Origin: Spirochaetota bacterium
GTDB lineage: Bacteria > Spirochaetota > Spirochaetia > CAKZLE01
Length of the DNA: 64,000 bases
Assembly (NCBI GenBank): GCA_051745285.1
Contig: JBNJDX010000006.1
Coordinates: forward strand, 26 to 64,025
Direction: 5' to 3'
The notes below the pieces were generated by a model. That model saw only the letters and a list, made by a program, of their open reading frames with translations, made no database searches and was not told the DNA's origin. Below, one piece after another: positions 15,448 to 25,754 of the stretch. The translations under genes and the position numbers were made by a program. Each line of letters opens with the position of its first letter. Within the stretch, counting starts at the first letter, position 1.

Positions 15448-17271
15448 TTATTCTTTCCGTTTCAGCAGTTTGGAAAGAAAGTCAGGTTTCTTTTTCTTCT
15501 TTCCTCCGGTTTCAGGTTGTTCTGAGGTTTTCTGCCCTGAATCCTGACTCTCAGACGGTTTATTGGGCGACTGTGTACCAGAGGCATCTTTACCTGGCTT
15601 GTGTTTCCTGTTCCTGGAGTTATCACCGGCACCCTCTTTGCTTTCTGTCTCGAGTCCCCCACCATATTTTTTCTTATAATAGGCAACCCGCTGCTCAAAC
15701 GACAAATGTTCTATTGACTCCCCGCCTTTCTTTGGCTGCGGCTTTTGTGGGCGCTGTCTCTGCGTATTTGAACGTTTCTTGTCATTGCCAGAGGCGTCGG
15801 TATGTCTTGGGCTACCTTGTTTTTTCTGGCCGGATGGAGCCTGTGATGGTTTTTCACCATTGCTCGTCGGTCGATTCTCAGATACCCTGGGTGCTTTTTC
15901 GCTGCTGTTCTTGCGCCGCTTGTCGTTAGCCTGGGCAGAACCCCCTTGTTTTGATCCGCCCTTTTGCTGAGAGGAACCCTTTTGACGGCTCTGCTGCCGA
16001 CTTTTACCGTCCCTACTCTGGCTCGCCCCTCGCTGGGTATTTTTGGGAGAGAAACTCCTTTTCCCGGAACTCCCGCCCTGACGGCTGGTATTTACAAGAT
16101 CGTGGAATCTCAAGTGGGCGCTTTTATCAGTAACCTTGGGAAGGATTTCATCGTCGATCTGTACAACGGGGATTTTCATCTGGATGTATTCTTCCACCGC
16201 TTCCAGTCCATAGACAAATTGCTCACAGGCCAAAGTTATGGCCAGTCCACTATTTCCCGCTCTTGCTGTCCGACCAACACGATGCACGTAATTTTCAAAA
16301 TCCTCGGGCACATCGTAGTTAACCACTAACTGGAGGCCTTCTACGTGCAACCCTCTGGCGGCGACATCGGTAGCCACAAGAAACTTGATGGAACCCCGCT
16401 TCATTCCGTCAATAACCTTCAGTCGTTTTGACTGGGGAACATCGCCCATCAAAACCTGTGCACCGTATCCGTTGATTTCGAGGCGCTTGGCGACTTCCAC
16501 AGCCATCGACTTGGTATTGGTAAAAATGATGGCATTCTCAGGCTGTTTGTCTGCCAGCAACCGGAGCAGGATACTGAATTTCTCCTGCTTGCTCACATGG
16601 TAGAGCTCCTGTCGAATCTCATTCACAGTAATAGATTCAGACTCGATATCAATCTCGACAGGCTCATTCATAAATTCCCAGGCGAGATTACGGGCTCTGT
16701 TTGACAGCGTAGCACTAAAGAGAAGCGTCTGTCGTGCATCACGTGACTTCATACGTTGGAACATATACTGAATGTCCGGGTAAAACCCCATATCAAACAG
16801 GCGGTCAGCCTCATCGACGACAACAACGTCCATTTTTTCAAGCGGAATCTTTCTTGCTTTACTGTAGTCCATCAGTCTTCCGGGTGTTCCGATGTAGAGG
16901 TTAACGCCCTTATTCAACTGCTCATCCTGCTCCTTGTAACCAATACCTCCGTAAAATGTACCGATTTCAAGTTCAGGGAATCCTTTTGCCAGCAAAGTGG
17001 CATCATGTTCAATCTGAACTGCAAGTTCCCTCGTGGGAACAATAACCAGCGCTTTCATCCCTTTTTTGTCAGCTGCTTTTGCAAAACGTTCTAAAATGGT
17101 TATTAAAAATGCGGCAGTCTTGCCTGTTCCAGTCTGTGACTGAACCAGGACATCTCCGCCTTTAAGGGTCTGTTCAAAAACCTTTTCCTGTACAGGCATG
17201 CAGTCTTCAAATGCTGCCGCCTCAATCCCCGTTCGGGTCTGGGGTTCTAATGGTAATTCACTAAATTTCAT
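15448..17271 (-). CDS. DEAD-box ATP-dependent RNA helicase with long basic low-complexity C-terminal tail
   Basis: 607 aa. Motifs: Q-motif region, SQTGTGKTAAF, PTRELA, TPGRL, VVVDEAD, SAT, HRVGRTARAG. The last ~200 aa are rich in K, R, Q, S and G. Confidence 0.93.
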   Translation of the reverse strand: MKFSELPLEPQTRTGIEAAAFEDCMPVQEKVFEQTLKGGDVLVQSQTGTGKTAAFLITILERFAKAADKKGMKALVIVPTRELAVQIEHDATLLAKGFPELEIGTFYGGIGYKEQDEQLNKGVNLYIGTPGRLMDYSKARKIPLEKMDVVVVDEADRLFDMGFYPDIQYMFQRMKSRDARQTLLFSATLSNRARNLAWEFMNEPVEIDIESESITVNEIRQELYHVSKQEKFSILLRLLADKQPENAIIFTNTKSMAVEVAKRLEINGYGAQVLMGDVPQSKRLKVIDGMKRGSIKFLVATDVAARGLHVEGLQLVVNYDVPEDFENYVHRVGRTARAGNSGLAITLACEQFVYGLEAVEEYIQMKIPVVQIDDEILPKVTDKSAHLRFHDLVNTSRQGGSSGKRSFSPKNTQRGASQSRDGKSRQQSRQKGSSQQKGGSKQGGSAQANDKRRKNSSEKAPRVSENRPTSNGEKPSQAPSGQKKQGSPRHTDASGNDKKRSNTQRQRPQKPQPKKGGESIEHLSFEQRVAYYKKKYGGGLETESKEGAGDNSRNRKHKPGKDASGTQSPNKPSESQDSGQKTSEQPETGGKKKKKPDFLSKLLKRKE

Positions 17272-17346: not shown

Positions 17347-17970
17347 TCAAAGTTGTGCTCTTGTTGATAACGAGCAGGGACCGCACGCGCGTCGCAAACT
17401 GGCAAGAAGAGCCGGCATCTGAGTCACTAGCTGTTCGGGGGGGCCTGTCCAGATGTTGTTTCCATATTCCTGCCTGAAAGCTTCTGTATTCAACACAGCA
17501 CGGGCCTTATTCGGAAACAAATGTGCGTGCAGACCTCGGAAGGATGCCGTTGCAAACTGCGGAACATCTTCAGCAAGCCGGTCGAGTATCTGCCCGGGGC
17601 TCATATCTCGTTGGGCAGGTTTCTCCAGATGCATAAGAAACCAGGTGATAATCCCCGGAGCGTTATAGCATAGTTCAACCTTTTTTGTTTTGGCTAGTTG
17701 CTCGTACTCTTGTCCCTTGCTAGGCCCCACTGAAATATCATACGGGTTATATACGCACCAGGCTGCCGCATACCCACCGTCACGGCGGAGTTTTCCGGCC
17801 TCTTTGATGTAGTTCTCAAGAGAAGCTGAGGAAAGATCATACCTCCGGACTGTTACATTGGTGAAGCGACAATCTTTGCGCATCTGCTCAAAATAGTTGT
17901 ATTCAAGCAGATTCGAACACAGAATCAATACTGGTCTTTTTGGTTCAAGTGTCTCATGTTTCCTCGGCAT
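17347..17970 (-). CDS. RloB/DUF4276-like (Toprim-like) protein, partner of the upstream ATPase; catalytic acidic residues apparently substituted
   Basis: ATG 17970 five nt after GGAGGTG, overlapping the ATPase 3' end by 17 nt; 207 aa. Three blocks were read against my recollection of RloB family patterns: VLILCSNLLEYNYF (cf. EG..TE..YF), AAWCVYNPYD (cf. aW.V.D.D), and ELCYNAPGIITWFLMHLE (cf. SNP.FE.WLLLHFE). Confidence 0.55.
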   Translation of the reverse strand: MPRKHETLEPKRPVLILCSNLLEYNYFEQMRKDCRFTNVTVRRYDLSSASLENYIKEAGKLRRDGGYAAAWCVYNPYDISVGPSKGQEYEQLAKTKKVELCYNAPGIITWFLMHLEKPAQRDMSPGQILDRLAEDVPQFATASFRGLHAHLFPNKARAVLNTEAFRQEYGNNIWTGPPEQLVTQMPALLASLRRACGPCSLSTRAQL

Positions 17971-19213
17971 GATTGCCACCTCCTTCGATGAAAGGCGAGG
18001 CATCCGAGAGTATCGGAATGGCCCCAAAAGCTCCCTGCAGGTACAACCGCCTAACATTATCCTGCTTTTTTATATTAAAGTCCGCCAGACTTCGTATCTG
18101 GGTACTCCCGTCAAGTTGTTTCTCCACCAGATAGATTTCATCTAACCTGAGCAGGCCCTCCTCAAGAGCGGTTGAACTCGAATCAGCTGTCAGCAATTGT
18201 GAGGTAGTGTCGGCTGTTATGTCAGCAAACAGAGAATATAATTTCTCCACAACCTTTTCGTGTAGTAATATCCCGAAATCATCAGCAACAAGTACAGCGG
18301 GTCTGTTTGCTGCCAGATAAAAAGCGGTGCCGATCATCGTCAGACGCCTCACACTGACTGGCTCATACTTGAATAGAGAGGCATATCCCCCGCTTGATGC
18401 AGTATGGATATACACAAGTGATGAGGTTTCCCCTCTGGGAAACAGGCGAATATCCCTGATATCGAAAAAGTCCATTGAGACAAGCAGATCTATCACAAAA
18501 CGCCGGAGCTTGTCATCCTGCTGCATGTGCTTCACACAATACTCTTCGCTGTTATCTGACAATCCCACCGGGACCATAATCAACTGCTGCGAAAACCACG
18601 CATACAGATCCTGGAGAGACGTGCTGCCTGCACGGGCAGCGGAACCGAGAAACAGTCTGCCCGCACCCAGCTTTTTCCCAAAACGTTTCTTTTCTCCTGA
18701 ATATGTTTTTCCCCAGCGGTATGTGTAGTGTTCATCTCCTTCCTCCCCATCCGGAGAAAGTTCACGCTCAAACAATCTTCTCAGAGATCGGCCATCCTGC
18801 AGAAAAAGAGATTCTCTATGAACCTTCTGACCGTCTGCCTCAACGGTGTATGTATACTGTCGATACGTTGTTTCCTCTTCTGGAGCAGCTGGAATAAGCA
18901 CCTCAATGGTTATCGAAACAGGCTGAGCCCTAGTCGCCGGATCATATGCAAACGAGGTCCCGTTCAGTCTGGACAGGGGGGCCTTATCCTCATCATCCAG
19001 CACAAGCCGTTGGAGTATTTCCAGGGCCTTGATGCAAGAGCTTTTCCCAGCCCCATTTGCTCCCAGCAAGGCCACCTGCCTGAGGAGACTACTAGTATCA
19101 TCGGCTGCAATGAGGTGATCTGTAGAAAGGCGTTTGTCCTTAACAGCCTCCCATGAGATTGTCTGCGGTGTTTTCATTCCTCGAAAATTAGAAACGGTGA
19201 GTGTAAGCAGCAT
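17954..19213 (-). CDS. AAA_21/ABC-like ATPase (AbiLi / RloA-like)
   Basis: ATG 19213 behind GGAGGAGG; 419 aa. N-terminus MLLTLTVSNFRGM, Walker A LLGANGAGKSS, Walker B-like AVLVADDFGILLHE. C-terminal block SQLLTADSS...LRLDEIYLVEK follows the family layout. Confidence 0.7.
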   Translation of the reverse strand: MLLTLTVSNFRGMKTPQTISWEAVKDKRLSTDHLIAADDTSSLLRQVALLGANGAGKSSCIKALEILQRLVLDDEDKAPLSRLNGTSFAYDPATRAQPVSITIEVLIPAAPEEETTYRQYTYTVEADGQKVHRESLFLQDGRSLRRLFERELSPDGEEGDEHYTYRWGKTYSGEKKRFGKKLGAGRLFLGSAARAGSTSLQDLYAWFSQQLIMVPVGLSDNSEEYCVKHMQQDDKLRRFVIDLLVSMDFFDIRDIRLFPRGETSSLVYIHTASSGGYASLFKYEPVSVRRLTMIGTAFYLAANRPAVLVADDFGILLHEKVVEKLYSLFADITADTTSQLLTADSSSTALEEGLLRLDEIYLVEKQLDGSTQIRSLADFNIKKQDNVRRLYLQGAFGAIPILSDASPFIEGGGNHAEET

Positions 19214-19282
19214 ACCGGAGGCCTCCTCCACTTTTTGTTAACTAAGCGTCTTATGTGTATGGTCCTGTGCGATGCAGGTCTT

Positions 19283-19936
19283 CTAGTTCAGATTGAGCAG
19301 TTTCAAAGATCGCTTATTTATTTCAGTGTGACGCAGCCAGCTATTAAAATCAATCGGTTTCCTGCTGCTTACGTGATTATCACTGGCTATAAAATCGACC
19401 CAACCCTCCCTGATAAGGGACTGGGCGAGCTTGGTATGCAGGCTATTGGCGTTTACCTGGAAGAGAACTCCCATTTCCCTCATTCGTTGGGCAGTATCTG
19501 ATGTTAGTGAAAACCAATTATACCTCTCAACATGAGCAAGTATCACCGACAAGCCGGATAACTGCAGGTCAAATACTCGATCAAGCAGGTACAAGGGCTC
19601 AGTGGTAGGGTTAGTCTCGACAAGCTGGAATTTTTCCAAAAAGGGAATATACTTGCCTATCTCCGCCCCTAAATACAGTTCAGAACCAAGAAAAACCTGT
19701 ATTCCGTAAAAGCTTGCCTCCTCCTCCAGCCAGCGATAGGCTTCCCGGATATTGAGTATCTTTGTCTTGACATAGGGGTCGTGCAGATGTGGTGTGCACA
19801 CTAACGATGTGAAGCCAGCTTGTACGTATTCTTTCAGTGCTGCAGTACTTTCTTGCTTGGACAACGCTCCATCATCCACATCTGGCAAAATATGGGTATG
19901 TATGTCGATCAAAATTCCTCCCCAACCATACAACAC
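19283..19936 (-). CDS. CpsB/YwqE-type PHP-domain protein-tyrosine phosphatase
   Basis: N-terminal metal-binding motif IDIHTHILPDVDDGA and a size of ~215 aa. The track start is GTG 19936; an alternative TTG at 19912 would give the canonical MIDIH N-terminus. Confidence 0.85.
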   Translation of the reverse strand: MLYGWGGILIDIHTHILPDVDDGALSKQESTAALKEYVQAGFTSLVCTPHLHDPYVKTKILNIREAYRWLEEEASFYGIQVFLGSELYLGAEIGKYIPFLEKFQLVETNPTTEPLYLLDRVFDLQLSGLSVILAHVERYNWFSLTSDTAQRMREMGVLFQVNANSLHTKLAQSLIREGWVDFIASDNHVSSRKPIDFNSWLRHTEINKRSLKLLNLN

Positions 19937-19983: not shown

Positions 19984-22467
19984 TTAACTTAAGCTGTTGT
20001 CGTCGTCAGGCCCCTCGCTCTCATCGTTCCGTTCGTACTCCTCGGACTCTATCTCCGAGAGAAATTCTATTGAACTCTTTTTTAGTACTGCCCCGGAACT
20101 CTGTTTCATCTGCCTTTTGGGCTCTGTTGACGTACCAGGGCTCTCCTCCTCGTGCTGAAAGCTCTGCGGATCTTCTTCCTGCGAAAAGGCCTGTTTAGCC
20201 TGCCTTCCCTTGCCGTTGGCAGTGCGTTTTCTAAACGTACTACCACCAGATTTCCTTCTCTGTTTCCTGCCTTCATCTCCGCTATAGTAGTAATAGTAGT
20301 GATAGTAGTCGTACGAATTCAACTTGGACTGATCGTTTGTAACAATCCCGATAAACGGTACAGAAGCACTGCCGATATTCTCACCTATCAGCTGCAAACT
20401 GCTCTTCGAGGTATTTCCCATGCGCACTACCATCACCAGACCGTCGGTTTCCCTAACGACTATGAGACCGTCGGACGCGGCCAGAAGCGGGGGCAGGTCT
20501 ACGATGATGTGGTCATAATGTCCCTTTAGCTTCGTGAACGCCTGTTTGAATTTTTCTGAAGTTATCAGAGCTGTGGGGTTTGGCGGTATGGGGCCGACCG
20601 GAAGCAGGTGTAAATTGGGAAGTTCATCAAGAGGCTGCAAGATAAGTTCCTTAAGCTCTTTATCCAGCAGTAGATGGTTAACCAACCCGTCTACGGCCCG
20701 CTCGAGCCCGAAAGCCTGCTCTAGGCGCGGTTTGCGCATGTCTGCATCTATGAGCAGGGTGCGCATTCCATTTTGAGCCATTGCAATGGCTGTGTTGGCA
20801 CAGACTGTAGTCTTACCAGCAGCCATCTCAGAACTGCCAAAACAGACAATCTGCGGCCTACTAACCTTACTGTACAGCACATTTGTCGATATAAGCTTAA
20901 AAGACTCTGCAGCTGGAGAGGTGGAATTATTGTACACAATGAGCTCAGGAAACTCCTCCTTGTAGTCAAACTGCAGATGCGGAATTCGACCGACAATTGG
21001 TATCTCCTGTCCAAAAATTCGCCGGATGGTCTCTTCATCTTTAACCGAATCATCAAATGTTTCCATAAGAAAGACGAGTAAAGCTCCCAGGAAAAGCCCG
21101 AGCAGGGCTCCGACAGCTAACAGCATTTTTTTATTCGGCTTAATCGGTGAATTGTTGGCTACGGCCTCATCAATGATCGTTGAAGTTCCAGAGACTGCGG
21201 CCTCTGCAATTTTGGCTTCCTCGAAGTTTTCCAAAAGCAGTAGATAGAGATTCTCTTTTACCTTTACATCCCGTTTCAACTCCAATAGGCGTTGCTCCAA
21301 CCGCGGCAGATTCACCATCTTCTCTTCATAGGAGGTTTTAAGCTCAGTGAGGTAGGAAATATTGGCTTCAGCGATTATTTGCTGTGTGTAGGCCCTAGCC
21401 ATCTGAGCATGATTGTTTCGAACATACGGAGAGGTGCTTTCAACTTGAGAAAACACCAGTTCATTTACGCGTGCCCGTATTTCATTTTCCAACCGGACCA
21501 AGCGTGAACGCAGATCCTGCGTTCGGGAGGTCGAAGCGGAAGCTTCTCCATCCCTTTGATCGGTATAGCCGACATACTCAAGCTTCGTATTTTTCATCTC
21601 AGAAATCTTCTCTCTCAATTCACTGTCGGCTACCACTTCCTCGTATGAATATACAGTTCCACCCTCCTGCCGGATATCATCAGCATATACCTGCTGCTTG
21701 TTGAGAGCCTCCTGACGCTGCAGTCTGTAGGGTTCAATCTGCTGCTCGTACTTGGTAATATACTCAAGCAGTAGACCAGCCTCCTCTTCGAGAGCGAAGA
21801 CACCCTCCTCCTCCTTGAACTCCCGAAGCCGGTTCTCTGCCTGCTCAACTTGTTCCAGAGCAGGACCGATCTGGCTTTCAATGAACTCACGACGTACGGA
21901 AAACTCATTTTGAGCTAGTTCACGCAGGAGGTTGTTATAGACAACCGCAAGAGTGTTAGCAATATCACGCGCGAGCAGGTAATCTGTATGCTCTACAGAG
22001 ATTCTTACAATGTTAGTATCTTTTACCGTGTTAACGGTTATCGCACCACTAAGATGCCGAACCAAACTGTCGGTGGTCACCCTGTTGTCACTGCCGGACA
22101 TAGATGAGTAACGCTCAACAAGATTCAGCTCTTCGATGAGTTTTTCGAGATTACGCCGACTCTTAATGATTTCTACCTCAGTCGAAATGCTTGCAGAACC
22201 GCTACTACCACGCACGGTGAACAGATCTTCAAAGGAGCTGCCACTTTGGGAAGGTTCAATCCAGAGAGTCGCACTGGAGGAGTAGACAGGGGAAGCCAGA
22301 TAGAGGTAGACCATCACGACAGTGATGGACAACAAAAACGTCACGGCCAACAACAATTTTCTGCTGCGGACAATTCGCAGAATATCTTTTAGTGATATTT
22401 CGTTCTGCTCATCAGTATATGGTTGTTGTTCCAAATTGTAACTCCGTTGTTTTTCGCATCCGAGCAA
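19984..22467 (-). CDS. Polysaccharide co-polymerase / BY-tyrosine autokinase fusion (Wzc/GumC-EpsB type)
   Basis: 827 aa. N-terminal Wzz-like domain with 2 TM segments and a long coiled coil. Kinase Walker A SSEMAAGKTT, A' LLIDADMRKP, Walker B IIVDLPP, and tyrosine cluster YDYYHYYYYY. An extra 96-aa tail follows the Y-cluster. Confidence 0.9.
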   Translation of the reverse strand: MLGCEKQRSYNLEQQPYTDEQNEISLKDILRIVRSRKLLLAVTFLLSITVVMVYLYLASPVYSSSATLWIEPSQSGSSFEDLFTVRGSSGSASISTEVEIIKSRRNLEKLIEELNLVERYSSMSGSDNRVTTDSLVRHLSGAITVNTVKDTNIVRISVEHTDYLLARDIANTLAVVYNNLLRELAQNEFSVRREFIESQIGPALEQVEQAENRLREFKEEEGVFALEEEAGLLLEYITKYEQQIEPYRLQRQEALNKQQVYADDIRQEGGTVYSYEEVVADSELREKISEMKNTKLEYVGYTDQRDGEASASTSRTQDLRSRLVRLENEIRARVNELVFSQVESTSPYVRNNHAQMARAYTQQIIAEANISYLTELKTSYEEKMVNLPRLEQRLLELKRDVKVKENLYLLLLENFEEAKIAEAAVSGTSTIIDEAVANNSPIKPNKKMLLAVGALLGLFLGALLVFLMETFDDSVKDEETIRRIFGQEIPIVGRIPHLQFDYKEEFPELIVYNNSTSPAAESFKLISTNVLYSKVSRPQIVCFGSSEMAAGKTTVCANTAIAMAQNGMRTLLIDADMRKPRLEQAFGLERAVDGLVNHLLLDKELKELILQPLDELPNLHLLPVGPIPPNPTALITSEKFKQAFTKLKGHYDHIIVDLPPLLAASDGLIVVRETDGLVMVVRMGNTSKSSLQLIGENIGSASVPFIGIVTNDQSKLNSYDYYHYYYYYSGDEGRKQRRKSGGSTFRKRTANGKGRQAKQAFSQEEDPQSFQHEEESPGTSTEPKRQMKQSSGAVLKKSSIEFLSEIESEEYERNDESEGPDDDNSLS

Positions 22468-24040: not shown

Positions 24041-24871
24041 TCACGAGGTGAGAAAATTTACAGTAACTTCCATGGCTTTCTCGCGTGCGAGCTCATCCCG
24101 ATCGTAGGGAATAAGGTGCCCGGCCTCGGGGAGATGCACGGTATGTACAGTTCCTAAAACCTGCCGCTCAATCAACTCGCCCACTGAAGGGTCAACTGTC
24201 TGATCCGCATCCCCTGTCAGGACCATGACAGAAGCTGTAATCTTGGCAAGGCTGGCAACTGCGGCTTTGCTAAGAGTGAGCAGCTCATATACTTTTCGAA
24301 GATTTAAAACGCTCCAGTATTCTTGTCCAAGATAAGCATCGTCATCAGGGTTGCGGTCATCAAAAAACGTAATGGTGGGATCCTGTTCCCAGGGAACGGA
24401 GATTCGATGGCGAAGGAGTTGTAACAACGGCACCATCTTTATAGAGGGATTGATGAATTTCAGGGCTGGTGCCATCAACACCATTCTCTCCACTGGAAAT
24501 CGTGCAGCTACGAGGCATGCTATTGCTCCACCCATAGAATGGCCGAGCAGATGTACGTGTGTATACATACTGGACATATCACGGTAGGCATCTACCGCAG
24601 CGGCCACCCAATCGTATCTATCAGTTTTATCGAAATCGTCCTGGCTGGTTCCATGTCCCGGCAGCCGGGGTACGAACACATCCACTCCGCGAGCATACAA
24701 GCGTTGTGCAGGCAGGGCAAGTTCACCTGGGTACCCTCCAAACCCGTGAAGACCCAATACAGCAGTGTCGTGTTCCGCTTTCCCCTTCAGGCAAATAGGT
24801 ACAGCACATCGGCGAACAGGATCTGTTGTTCTGATTACGGGTTTCAAGAAGCGCCTCCTGTCAATGGACAT
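24041..24871 (-). CDS. Alpha/beta hydrolase (carboxylesterase/lysophospholipase-like)
   Basis: 276 aa. Nucleophile elbow GHSMGG, oxyanion region LGLHGFGG, C-terminal His in GHLIPYD. Confidence 0.8.
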   Translation of the reverse strand: MSIDRRRFLKPVIRTTDPVRRCAVPICLKGKAEHDTAVLGLHGFGGYPGELALPAQRLYARGVDVFVPRLPGHGTSQDDFDKTDRYDWVAAAVDAYRDMSSMYTHVHLLGHSMGGAIACLVAARFPVERMVLMAPALKFINPSIKMVPLLQLLRHRISVPWEQDPTITFFDDRNPDDDAYLGQEYWSVLNLRKVYELLTLSKAAVASLAKITASVMVLTGDADQTVDPSVGELIERQVLGTVHTVHLPEAGHLIPYDRDELAREKAMEVTVNFLTS

Positions 24872-24878
24872 TGGTTGA

Positions 24879-25754
24879 TCAACCTCTGAGCAAGTTCAAT
24901 AAATCGATCCGGCTGCTAACGTGAGTCTTCTGATAAATATGAGCAATGTGGTTGTTGACTGTGCTCACTGATATATGCAACCAGGCTGCAATTTCCTTGC
25001 TCGAGTAGCCGCTGCTGATCAATTTGATTATTTCTTCCTCCCGGTGGGTAACATGATATTCACCGAGACTCTCCAGATCCAACTCTGCCTTAGGTTTTAC
25101 CGGGATTGTTCTAAAATAATTGAACAGATAGACGAATATGATAAGGGAGAGCCAGAAATAATAGATCGGCATTGTGGCTATGTAGCCAAAGGAAAACAAC
25201 AAGTCGGCTGCAATAAACGGCACCATAAACAACGAGAGGGCAATACATGCCAGGCTGATCAGCCGGGCATCCTGATCTTTGATGTTGCCGATATTCTTCA
25301 GCAGTACTCCCAGGCAGAACAGAAAATCGCCAAGAAATATACACATCATACTGATTCGAATGGGCGCGTTAAAACCGATGATGGAGCCGGTTATAGCAAG
25401 TCCCACAAACACGATACTCAACAGAGTGAAAATCGTCTTGTAGGGGTTCCGCCAAGGGTGGGCAATGATCCATGTGGAAAAATAGGGGATGAAGTAGGTC
25501 ATAAAGGCCATATCAAGCAGTAGCAGCCAGAGAAAAATCTGACCAACGATAGCGGGTGTCTCAAAGGCCGCAGAGATATACCGTCCGCTCGAATAGAAGA
25601 CTAGAAGAAACGTGATTGATACTTGAAAAACTAGATAATATTTAGTCCATTCATACGAAGTACGGAGATGAAACAGGACAGCAAGACACAGTGTCATACA
25701 CCCTACGGCAAACGCGATAATAAACAGTAATAGATTGAAATCTGCCCAGTTCAT
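24879..25754 (-). CDS. Membrane-embedded LuxR-family regulator (polytopic N-terminal domain + C-terminal LuxR/GerE HTH)
   Basis: 291 aa. The first ~225 aa consist of ~7 hydrophobic segments. C-terminus EEEIIKLISSGYSSKEIAAWLHISVSTVNNHIAHIYQK is a GerE HTH. The stop lies 7 nt before the hydrolase ATG. Confidence 0.8.
   Translation of the reverse strand: MNWADFNLLLFIIAFAVGCMTLCLAVLFHLRTSYEWTKYYLVFQVSITFLLVFYSSGRYISAAFETPAIVGQIFLWLLLLDMAFMTYFIPYFSTWIIAHPWRNPYKTIFTLLSIVFVGLAITGSIIGFNAPIRISMMCIFLGDFLFCLGVLLKNIGNIKDQDARLISLACIALSLFMVPFIAADLLFSFGYIATMPIYYFWLSLIIFVYLFNYFRTIPVKPKAELDLESLGEYHVTHREEEIIKLISSGYSSKEIAAWLHISVSTVNNHIAHIYQKTHVSSRIDLLNLLRG

Follow-up and report, generated by a model that had tools for sequence, protein, structure and literature searches.

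A spirochaete AbiL-type ATPase and RloB-like gene pair without canonical hydrolysis and Toprim residues, and its probable recruitment to a cellular role

Anti-phage defence systems are generally recognised by homology and are then counted as immunity genes. Does that label still fit a gene pair whose family resemblance is clear and whose catalytic residues are gone? The question is raised by a locus in a 64-kb window (positions 1-64000, the whole stretch of DNA that was analysed) from a spirochaete metagenome-assembled genome (MAG). Two minus-strand genes in this window encode an ATP-binding cassette (ABC)/Rad50-like ATPase and a Toprim-type, RloB-like protein, and they resemble the AbiL anti-phage pair. 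A first-pass annotation of the window had treated them as an isolated candidate defence module that might be decaying. The reading preferred here, at a probability of roughly 60%, is that the pair is an exapted AbiL-type module, in which a switch that binds ATP but hydrolyses it poorly or not at all fulfils a cellular role together with a non-nuclease Toprim partner. It is carried by the clade-wide loss of catalytic residues, by a fixed position in the genome and by strong purifying selection.

Gene arrangement and family membership

The open reading frames (ORFs) and inspection of the sequence show a 17-nt overlap of the two genes (17954-17970). This overlap, and a separate Shine-Dalgarno sequence for each gene, had been described in the first-pass annotation, and both stand: a GGAGG lies 8 nt before each ATG. 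The ATPase ORF covers 17954-19231 when counted from a GTG. The ATG at 19213 is the likelier start and gives a protein of 419 amino acids (aa) with the N-terminus MLLTLTV. The stretch GGAGGAGG at 19222-19229 contains the GGAGG and leaves an 8-nt spacer before this ATG, and the stop codon TGA occupies 17954-17956. The RloB-like ORF runs from an ATG at 17970 to its end at 17347, with its GGAGG at 17979-17983. Both proteins are already annotated in the NCBI record, as 'AAA family ATPase' and 'RloB domain-containing protein'.

The ATPase matches the PADLOC model of AbiLi at 7.8e-50 and Pfam AAA_21 at 3.5e-7 (31 bits, cut-off 27). Its AlphaFold2 (AF2) model has a predicted local distance difference test score (pLDDT) of 89.7, and Foldseek matches the model to Rad50/SMC heads, PtuA and OLD with E-values from 1e-9 to 1e-11. 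The same Rad50/SMC, PtuA and OLD neighbours, together with AriA, were returned by a sequence search of the PDB. Matches to PADLOC AriA are weak (1.1e-6 and 5.3e-10), and those to Old and GajA are marginal (E 1e-2 to 3e-4); the ATPase and Toprim parts are two separate genes here.

The 207-aa partner passes Pfam RloB (PF13707) narrowly, at 4.3e-8 and 34 bits against a cut-off of 31.5, and the Pfam scan gave no DUF4435 match. In a comparison of profiles, hhalign of the spirochaete-clade profile against the canonical RloB profile gives a probability of 100% and an E-value of 7e-41. Strands and helices, four of each, alternate in its AF2 model (pLDDT 91.4), an order that is read as Toprim-like. The top match of this model in BFVD, which holds predicted viral structures, is an 'RloB-like protein' (E 5.9e-7, template modelling (TM) score 0.69). 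A Foldseek search of the PDB gave no match at E<=1e-3, only generic Rossmann-like ones at E>=5e-3, and PDB sequences searched with a profile yielded no significant match and no solved RloB. Because no solved structure matched significantly, the Toprim fold is supported by the secondary-structure order, the BFVD match and the profile comparison.

With PADLOC AbiLii, the RloB-like protein of the window has no match at E<=1, the Sphaerochaeta orthologue reaches 2.2e-7, and the canonical relatives lie between 1e-14 and 1e-19. In this Sphaerochaeta orthologue pair (locus L009, 6001-7879), the catalytic residues are gone, and the ATPase still matches AbiLi at 1.2e-54. Profile and motif comparisons thus show the pair to be a true relative of the AbiL anti-phage pair (AbiLi/AbiLii, RloA/RloB-like), which the first-pass annotation had also named. 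A literature search returned no paper tying Sphaerochaeta to AbiL or RloB.

Catalytic residues in the window and across the clade

The motifs of the window were placed by alignment to canonical relatives. The clade counts come from 86 distinct RloB-like and 83 distinct ATPase sequences, taken from 93 related loci and the window. All of the motifs that had been picked out beforehand are found: GANGAGKSS, LVADDFGILLHE (which contains D311-D312) and SQLLTADSS in the ATPase, and VLILCSNLLEYNYF, WCVYNPYD and NAPGIITWFLMHLE in its partner. The substitutions that had been suspected in them (Toprim Glu, DxD, Walker B and H-loop) proved real once the canonical relatives were aligned. They are a property of the whole clade and not of the window genome alone.

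In the ATPase, the P-loop is kept. G51, G56, K57 and S58 are each identical in 83 of 83 sequences, and the remaining positions are invariant or near-invariant in an alignment of 14 sequences. The canonical Walker B pattern hhhDE..LHP reads DDFGxLLH in the clade, with Asp at the Glu position in 83/83. The position of the H-loop His is occupied by Cys in 81 sequences, by Ser in one (the window) and by Val in one. The signature ESDGT is replaced by ESLSL in at least 81 of the 83. Where a competent ABC ATPase has the Walker B Asp-Glu and the H-loop His, the window has D311-D312 and S345. Since the P-loop and the Walker B Asp are invariant, nucleotide binding has probably been kept. The exchange of Glu for Asp, the lost His and the altered signature form the pattern of degenerate, poorly hydrolysing ABC sites, which argues by analogy for a similar state here. 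The spirochaete clade also lacks an insertion of 60-80 aa that is present in most of the aligned 450-aa canonical ATPases. The region of this insertion is where AbiLi and AriA differ most (PMC13064643).

The canonical RloB blocks read LIVCEGE-TE..YF, WCVFDxD and SNPCFELW.LLHF, and their counterparts in the window are LILCSNL-LE, WCVYNPYD and NAPGIITW.LMHL. At the position of the first Toprim Glu, Ala is found in 65 sequences, Ser in 20 and Thr in one of the 86; the Glu four residues later (E23) is kept in 77. The first Asp of the DxD is Gly, Ser or Asn in 79/86 and the second position is variable, with an Asp kept one residue later in 67/86. In the third block, P105, W110 and H114 are each present in 86/86; the FELW Glu survives in one sequence and is lost in 85. 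The Toprim metal residues (Glu, DxD and second Glu) are therefore not intact in the window, which has S19, N75/Y77 and I108 in their place. The RloB-like protein is unlikely to cut, because four of the five acidic positions of AriB-type enzymes are lost. Mutants of PARIS show what such positions can mean for a related system: AriB E26A abolishes defence, AriA E393A is ATPase-dead, and AriA K39A blocks binding of the trigger (PMC11464382).

The RloB-like clade has also gained a C-terminal tail, with the consensus CGLADLTHNQK / CGLADLTHNQKQLGLKK, that is absent from the canonical RloB sequences aligned. Its C196 and G197 are each present in 86/86. In the lineage of the window, the tail carries an extra Cys (CGPC or CGRC).

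Distribution, synteny and selection

Relatives of the pair were sought in one genome per GTDB species with the C-terminal half of the ATPase alignment as the query. An earlier scan with the full-length alignment had given 600 pattern matches and no confirmed relative; one of its two patterns was a generic Walker A stretch. With the C-terminal half, a relative was found to be encoded in at least 143 GTDB species representatives. The 80 of these 143 species that are listed are almost all Sphaerochaetaceae, and they include the cultured Sphaerochaeta halotolerans, Sphaerochaeta sp. PS and S2, and Pleomorphochaeta sp. A module that had been described as isolated thus has orthologues with the same substitutions, in fixed synteny, in at least 143 species representatives. 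In a neighbour-joining (NJ) tree, they form a single clade apart from the canonical 450-aa relatives, with the window in a sister lineage. For the ATPase homologues at 37-47% identity whose contigs were fetched, six out of six lie in a CpsB_CapC, AAA_21, RloB trio.

The genomic setting takes two forms. Searches with tblastn in the 80 listed species gave, where the contig reaches, the Sphaerochaetaceae block (PdxA)-hyp-CobA-CpsB-ATPase-RloB-GerE-abH-GluRS-ProRS, where hyp is a hypothetical gene, GerE the LuxR-type regulator, abH the alpha/beta hydrolase, and GluRS and ProRS the glutamyl- and prolyl-tRNA synthetases. Homologues of the regulator and the hydrolase hence lie directly 3' of the RloB-like gene. 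The first-pass annotation had itself stated that a core gene pair, syntenic in the whole clade, would speak against a defence module, and this is what the listed loci show. The order in the window is GerE-abH-ManC-Wzz/BY-kinase-CpsB-ATPase-RloB-DEAD, where BY-kinase stands for bacterial tyrosine kinase. Two loci (L001 and L002) match the window from abH via Wzz and the CpsB/ATPase/RloB trio to the DEAD-box gene, and the Wzz homologue of L001 carries Wzz, GNVR and AAA_31. Two others (L096 and L097) have the same genes minus ManC, which was not among the queries. The LuxR-type regulator was not detected in any of these four loci.

The neighbours vary around the pair, and the pair alone is invariant. 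The gap between the ATPase and RloB-like genes has a median of 2 bp over 82 orthologous loci. CpsB, which had been regarded as a flank without connection to the pair, is its most constant neighbour in two lineages that otherwise have different flanks. In 74 of the distinct loci it immediately precedes the ATPase gene, at a median distance of 29 bp. It is missing in at least five species (L036, L054, L063, L065 and L067), in which the CobA-ATPase gap is 122-144 bp and the pair is intact. The LuxR-type regulator is missing in about ten species (Pleomorphochaeta-like, L078, L081-L083, L085, L089 and L091-L093), again with the pair intact. The Wzz/BY-kinase gene adjoins the trio only in the lineage of the window; in Sphaerochaetaceae, CpsB is not beside any Wzz/BY-kinase gene.

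The ratio of non-synonymous to synonymous substitution rates (dN/dS) was estimated by the Nei-Gojobori method as medians over up to 23 independent close pairs, so that the values are approximate, and some pairs are near saturation. The medians are 0.035 for the ATPase, 0.031 for ProRS, 0.065 for GluRS, 0.069 for the RloB-like protein and 0.098 for CpsB. The pair is under housekeeping-level purifying selection, similar to that on the two synthetases, at odds with the decay that had been considered for it.

Mobile elements gave a matching picture. No relative of the clade was found in 2.9 million viral contigs, and plasmid and phage collections held nothing closer than 21-26% identity. The sporadic distribution, prone to horizontal transfer, that would be expected of a defence system is not seen, since the 80 listed species all carry the pair at one locus. 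Canonical relatives that keep the motifs have no CpsB nearby; they adjoin an integrase and a Rep gene or have a WYL regulator in the vicinity. The GC content is 0.45-0.51 over 12-26 kb with no step at the pair, in line with the absence of contrast reported before. Identities between the window and Sphaerochaeta UBA6084 are 39% for the ATPase, 33% for the RloB-like protein, 42% for CpsB, 40% for the LuxR-type regulator and 46% for the hydrolase. Since the GC content is uniform and the divergence from Sphaerochaeta is like that of neighbouring genes, a recent horizontal acquisition was rejected.

The neighbours of the pair in the window are housekeeping genes: CpsB, the Wzz/BY-kinase fusion, a sugar nucleotidyltransferase, the DEAD-box helicase, an ABC exporter and FtsK. 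The earlier remark that the pair sits between CpsB and DEAD-box genes, without defence or mobile-element neighbours, is thereby borne out. The genes for the LuxR-type regulator and the hydrolase give 40% and 46% identity by tblastn against those of L009. Scans of CpsB, the regulator and the hydrolase with PADLOC and NCBIfam gave no defence or pathway clue. Over the whole window, no tRNA or tmRNA gene and no Rfam match at gathering thresholds was found. A promoter and terminator scan gave nothing above shuffled expectation, and its result was not used. The Wzz/BY-kinase fusion (827 aa) has the Tyr cluster YDYYHYYYYYS followed by an acidic, Ser-rich low-complexity tail of about 110 aa. DEAD-box homologues in L001 and in L096/L097 share 57-60% identity with the helicase across most of the protein.

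Two loci need a comment on their assembly. One contig titled 'Bacteroides uniformis ... cleanbin' (L064, CAVESN010000006.1, 7218-13753) carries the ATPase-RloB-GerE-abH-GluRS-ProRS block, with aa identities of 37-80% to Sphaerochaeta UBA6084 (57% for the ATPase and 80% for ProRS); mis-binning or mislabelling is the probable cause. In L097 (7213-8459), two ORFs of 174 and 212 aa take the place of a single ATPase gene. This looks like an error in the LQA* metagenome assembly, because the neighbouring Wzz and DEAD-box genes also contain apparent frameshifts.

Table 1. Coordinates of the pair, its motifs and its neighbours in the window
Feature	Position	Strand	Basis
ATPase, ABC/Rad50-like, AbiLi/AAA_21 type, 419 aa	17954..19213	-	ORF, PADLOC, Pfam, AF2, Foldseek
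Walker A / P-loop G51-S58 (GANGAGKS), intact	19040..19063	-	clade alignment
Walker B D311-D312, catalytic Glu to Asp (D312)	18278..18283	-	alignment
Degenerate H-loop T342-S346 (TADSS); canonical [FA]TTHES; His to S345	18176..18190	-	alignment
RloB-like (Toprim-type) protein, 207 aa	17347..17970	-	Pfam RloB, hhalign, AF2, BFVD
First Toprim motif S19-N20-L21-L22-E23; canonical E-G-E-T-E; catalytic Glu to S19	17902..17916	-	alignment
Former DxD, now N75-P76-Y77-D78	17737..17748	-	alignment
Third RloB block P105-H114 (PGIITWFLMH), FELW Glu to I108	17629..17658	-	alignment
Clade-specific C-terminal tail of RloB-like protein, CGPCSLSTRAQL	17350..17385	-	alignment
CpsB/CapC-type PHP phosphatase gene, 69 bp upstream of ATPase	19283..19936	-	Pfam CpsB_CapC 6.1e-34
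Wzz / BY-kinase fusion, C-terminal Tyr cluster	19984..22467	-	translation
LuxR-type regulator (24879-25754) and alpha/beta hydrolase (24041-24871)	24041..25754	-	Pfam
DEAD-box helicase with C-terminal tail of about 210 aa rich in Lys, Ser, Gln and Gly	15448-17271	-	translation

Possible explanations and known systems

The exaptation of the pair can be pictured as follows. An AbiL-type module of ABC ATPase and Toprim protein would have been captured into the chromosome of an ancestor of Sphaerochaetaceae and of the sister spirochaete lineage to which the MAG of the window belongs, and would since have been passed down vertically as a core gene pair. The ATPase may still bind ATP and dimerise head to head like Rad50 and ABC proteins, hydrolysing slowly or not at all, and in this way it could work as a switch that depends on nucleotide, as degenerate sites do in some ABC proteins. 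Its RloB-like partner would no longer be able to perform two-metal Toprim cleavage and may serve the ATPase as a binding or adaptor subunit. The complex would have a cellular function other than abortive infection, probably a regulatory one. This role may be linked to the operon of the CpsB-type PHP tyrosine phosphatase, the LuxR-type regulator and the alpha/beta hydrolase, with which the pair is presumably co-transcribed in most genomes. A more specific proposal is tentative and rather less probable: that at or before the origin of Sphaerochaetaceae the pair was recruited into an essential or near-essential complex of two pseudo-enzymes, with the ATPase as an ATP-gated switch and the Toprim protein as an adaptor that does not cut; this complex may be tied to the control of envelope polysaccharide synthesis by CpsB.

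Several points weigh against exaptation. Acidic positions persist near the former Toprim site (E+2 in 80/86, E+4 in 77/86 and the Asp after the DxD, D78, in 67/86), and with three of them left, a rewired metal site is possible. Some ABC proteins with an Asp where the Walker B Glu would stand can still hydrolyse ATP to some extent. The 80 listed loci were chosen by the presence of the ATPase and therefore represent only genomes that carry it, whatever the share of Sphaerochaetaceae that lack the pair. Synteny would also be expected of a defence system once it had been fixed in a lineage. Finally, no coherent pathway emerges from the operon partners, which leaves the regulatory role that is proposed here poorly defined.

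Some of these points are shared by the strongest alternative, in which the pair is still an anti-phage system of the abortive-infection type that has been fixed in the lineage and works without canonical Toprim chemistry, either through a rewired acidic site or through ATP-dependent sequestering of a phage or host factor. The remaining acidic residues (E+2, E+4 and D78) fit this explanation, as do the clear membership in the AbiLi and RloB families, the AbiLi and AbiLii matches of the Sphaerochaeta orthologue pair, the invariant P-loop and the translational coupling that is kept between the two genes. A dN/dS that matches those of aminoacyl-tRNA synthetase genes does not, nor do a single chromosomal position in the 80 listed species, derived characters common to two lineages, and the absence of close relatives on phages or plasmids. 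The ATPase has lost the very insertion in whose region AbiLi and AriA differ most (PMC13064643), and none of the 86 RloB-like sequences has the Glu that is indispensable to PARIS (PMC11464382). Defence without Toprim chemistry is thus an unlikely, minority explanation and is ranked below exaptation.

The constancy of CpsB suggests another arrangement, a three-gene system of a CpsB-like PHP phosphoesterase, the ATPase and the RloB-like protein, where the PHP protein took over the lost effector role of the Toprim domain or where the pair regulates or scaffolds the phosphatase. CpsB does immediately precede the ATPase gene in two lineages with otherwise different surroundings, stands apart from any Wzz/BY-kinase gene in Sphaerochaetaceae, and keeps its PHP metal-binding motifs in the 76 distinct sequences aligned. 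In the lineage of the window, however, it directly follows its classical BY-kinase partner; it has no PADLOC match and evolves faster than the pair (dN/dS 0.098). An obligate system of three genes was downgraded because at least five species lost CpsB yet kept the pair, and an arrangement of this kind is doubtful, more so than continued defence. The least probable of all is a decaying defence remnant, with both genes pseudogenes in the making. Several catalytic motifs were lost together, and the ATPase of L097 is split, but that split looks like an assembly error. Full-length ORFs are intact in 83 to 86 distinct orthologues, new conserved features such as the C-terminal CG (86/86) have been gained, and the replacement residues have become conserved in their turn (D312 in 83/83, the H-loop Cys in 81/83). 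Decay was rejected on this conservation and on the low dN/dS of the two genes (0.035 and 0.069).

What would exaptation mean for the study of bacterial immunity? All the properties of this AbiL-type pair that could be checked are those of a core gene pair: a fixed locus, conservation like that of the synthetases, no close relatives on mobile elements, and the loss of the residues on which ATP hydrolysis and cleavage depend in the related PARIS system. If the reading is true, this would be a documented domestication of a defence module to a housekeeping role, and a natural 'catalytically dead' complex would be at hand for studying the non-cutting roles of ABC-ATPase/Toprim assemblies. It would also imply systematic false positives. 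Because the Sphaerochaeta orthologues match AbiLi and AbiLii, calls in the style of PADLOC or DefenseFinder may label a housekeeping pair 'AbiL' in every Sphaerochaetaceae genome.

Among known systems, AbiL of Lactococcus and RloA-RloB are the closest in design, with co-oriented, translationally coupled genes, an AAA_21 ATPase first and an RloB protein of about 200 aa second. The spirochaete pair differs in that its Toprim residues, Walker B Glu and H-loop His are replaced clade-wide, its ATPase lacks the 60-80 aa insertion, and its RloB-like protein has an extra conserved C-terminal tail. It is chromosomal, syntenic and conserved like housekeeping genes, not plasmid- or island-borne. How AbiL itself works has yet to be established by experiment (PMC13064643).

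PARIS also combines an ABC ATPase with a Toprim-type partner, which is held by the ATPase scaffold (PMC11464382). However, AriB belongs to DUF4435 and not to RloB, and the RloB-like protein has no DUF4435 match. AriB needs E26 and AriA needs E393 (PMC11464382), whose equivalents are absent in the spirochaete pair. PARIS is often borne by phages or satellites, unlike the spirochaete pair. OLD, GajA of Gabija and PtuA of Septu and retron systems share the ABC/Rad50-like ATPase fold class and are structural and sequence neighbours. In OLD and GajA, the ATPase and Toprim parts are joined in one polypeptide (Gabija also has the GajB helicase), whereas the spirochaetes use two genes, and the partner of PtuA is an HNH nuclease. 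OLD, GajA and PtuA keep their catalytic residues and are distributed sporadically.

For a mode of action, the nearest analogies lie outside defence. Degenerate ABC sites, such as that of TAP1, have the Walker B Glu replaced by Asp, a lost switch His and an altered signature; they bind ATP, hydrolyse it poorly and are regulatory. RecF-RecR is a case of an SMC-like ABC ATPase that works with a non-nuclease Toprim-domain protein. The same three changes as in TAP1-type sites are found in the spirochaete ATPase, a likeness that concerns the mode of action and not membership. With TAP1 and RecF-RecR there is no sequence relationship beyond the shared folds, and in the spirochaete ATPase both sites of the presumed homodimer would be degenerate.

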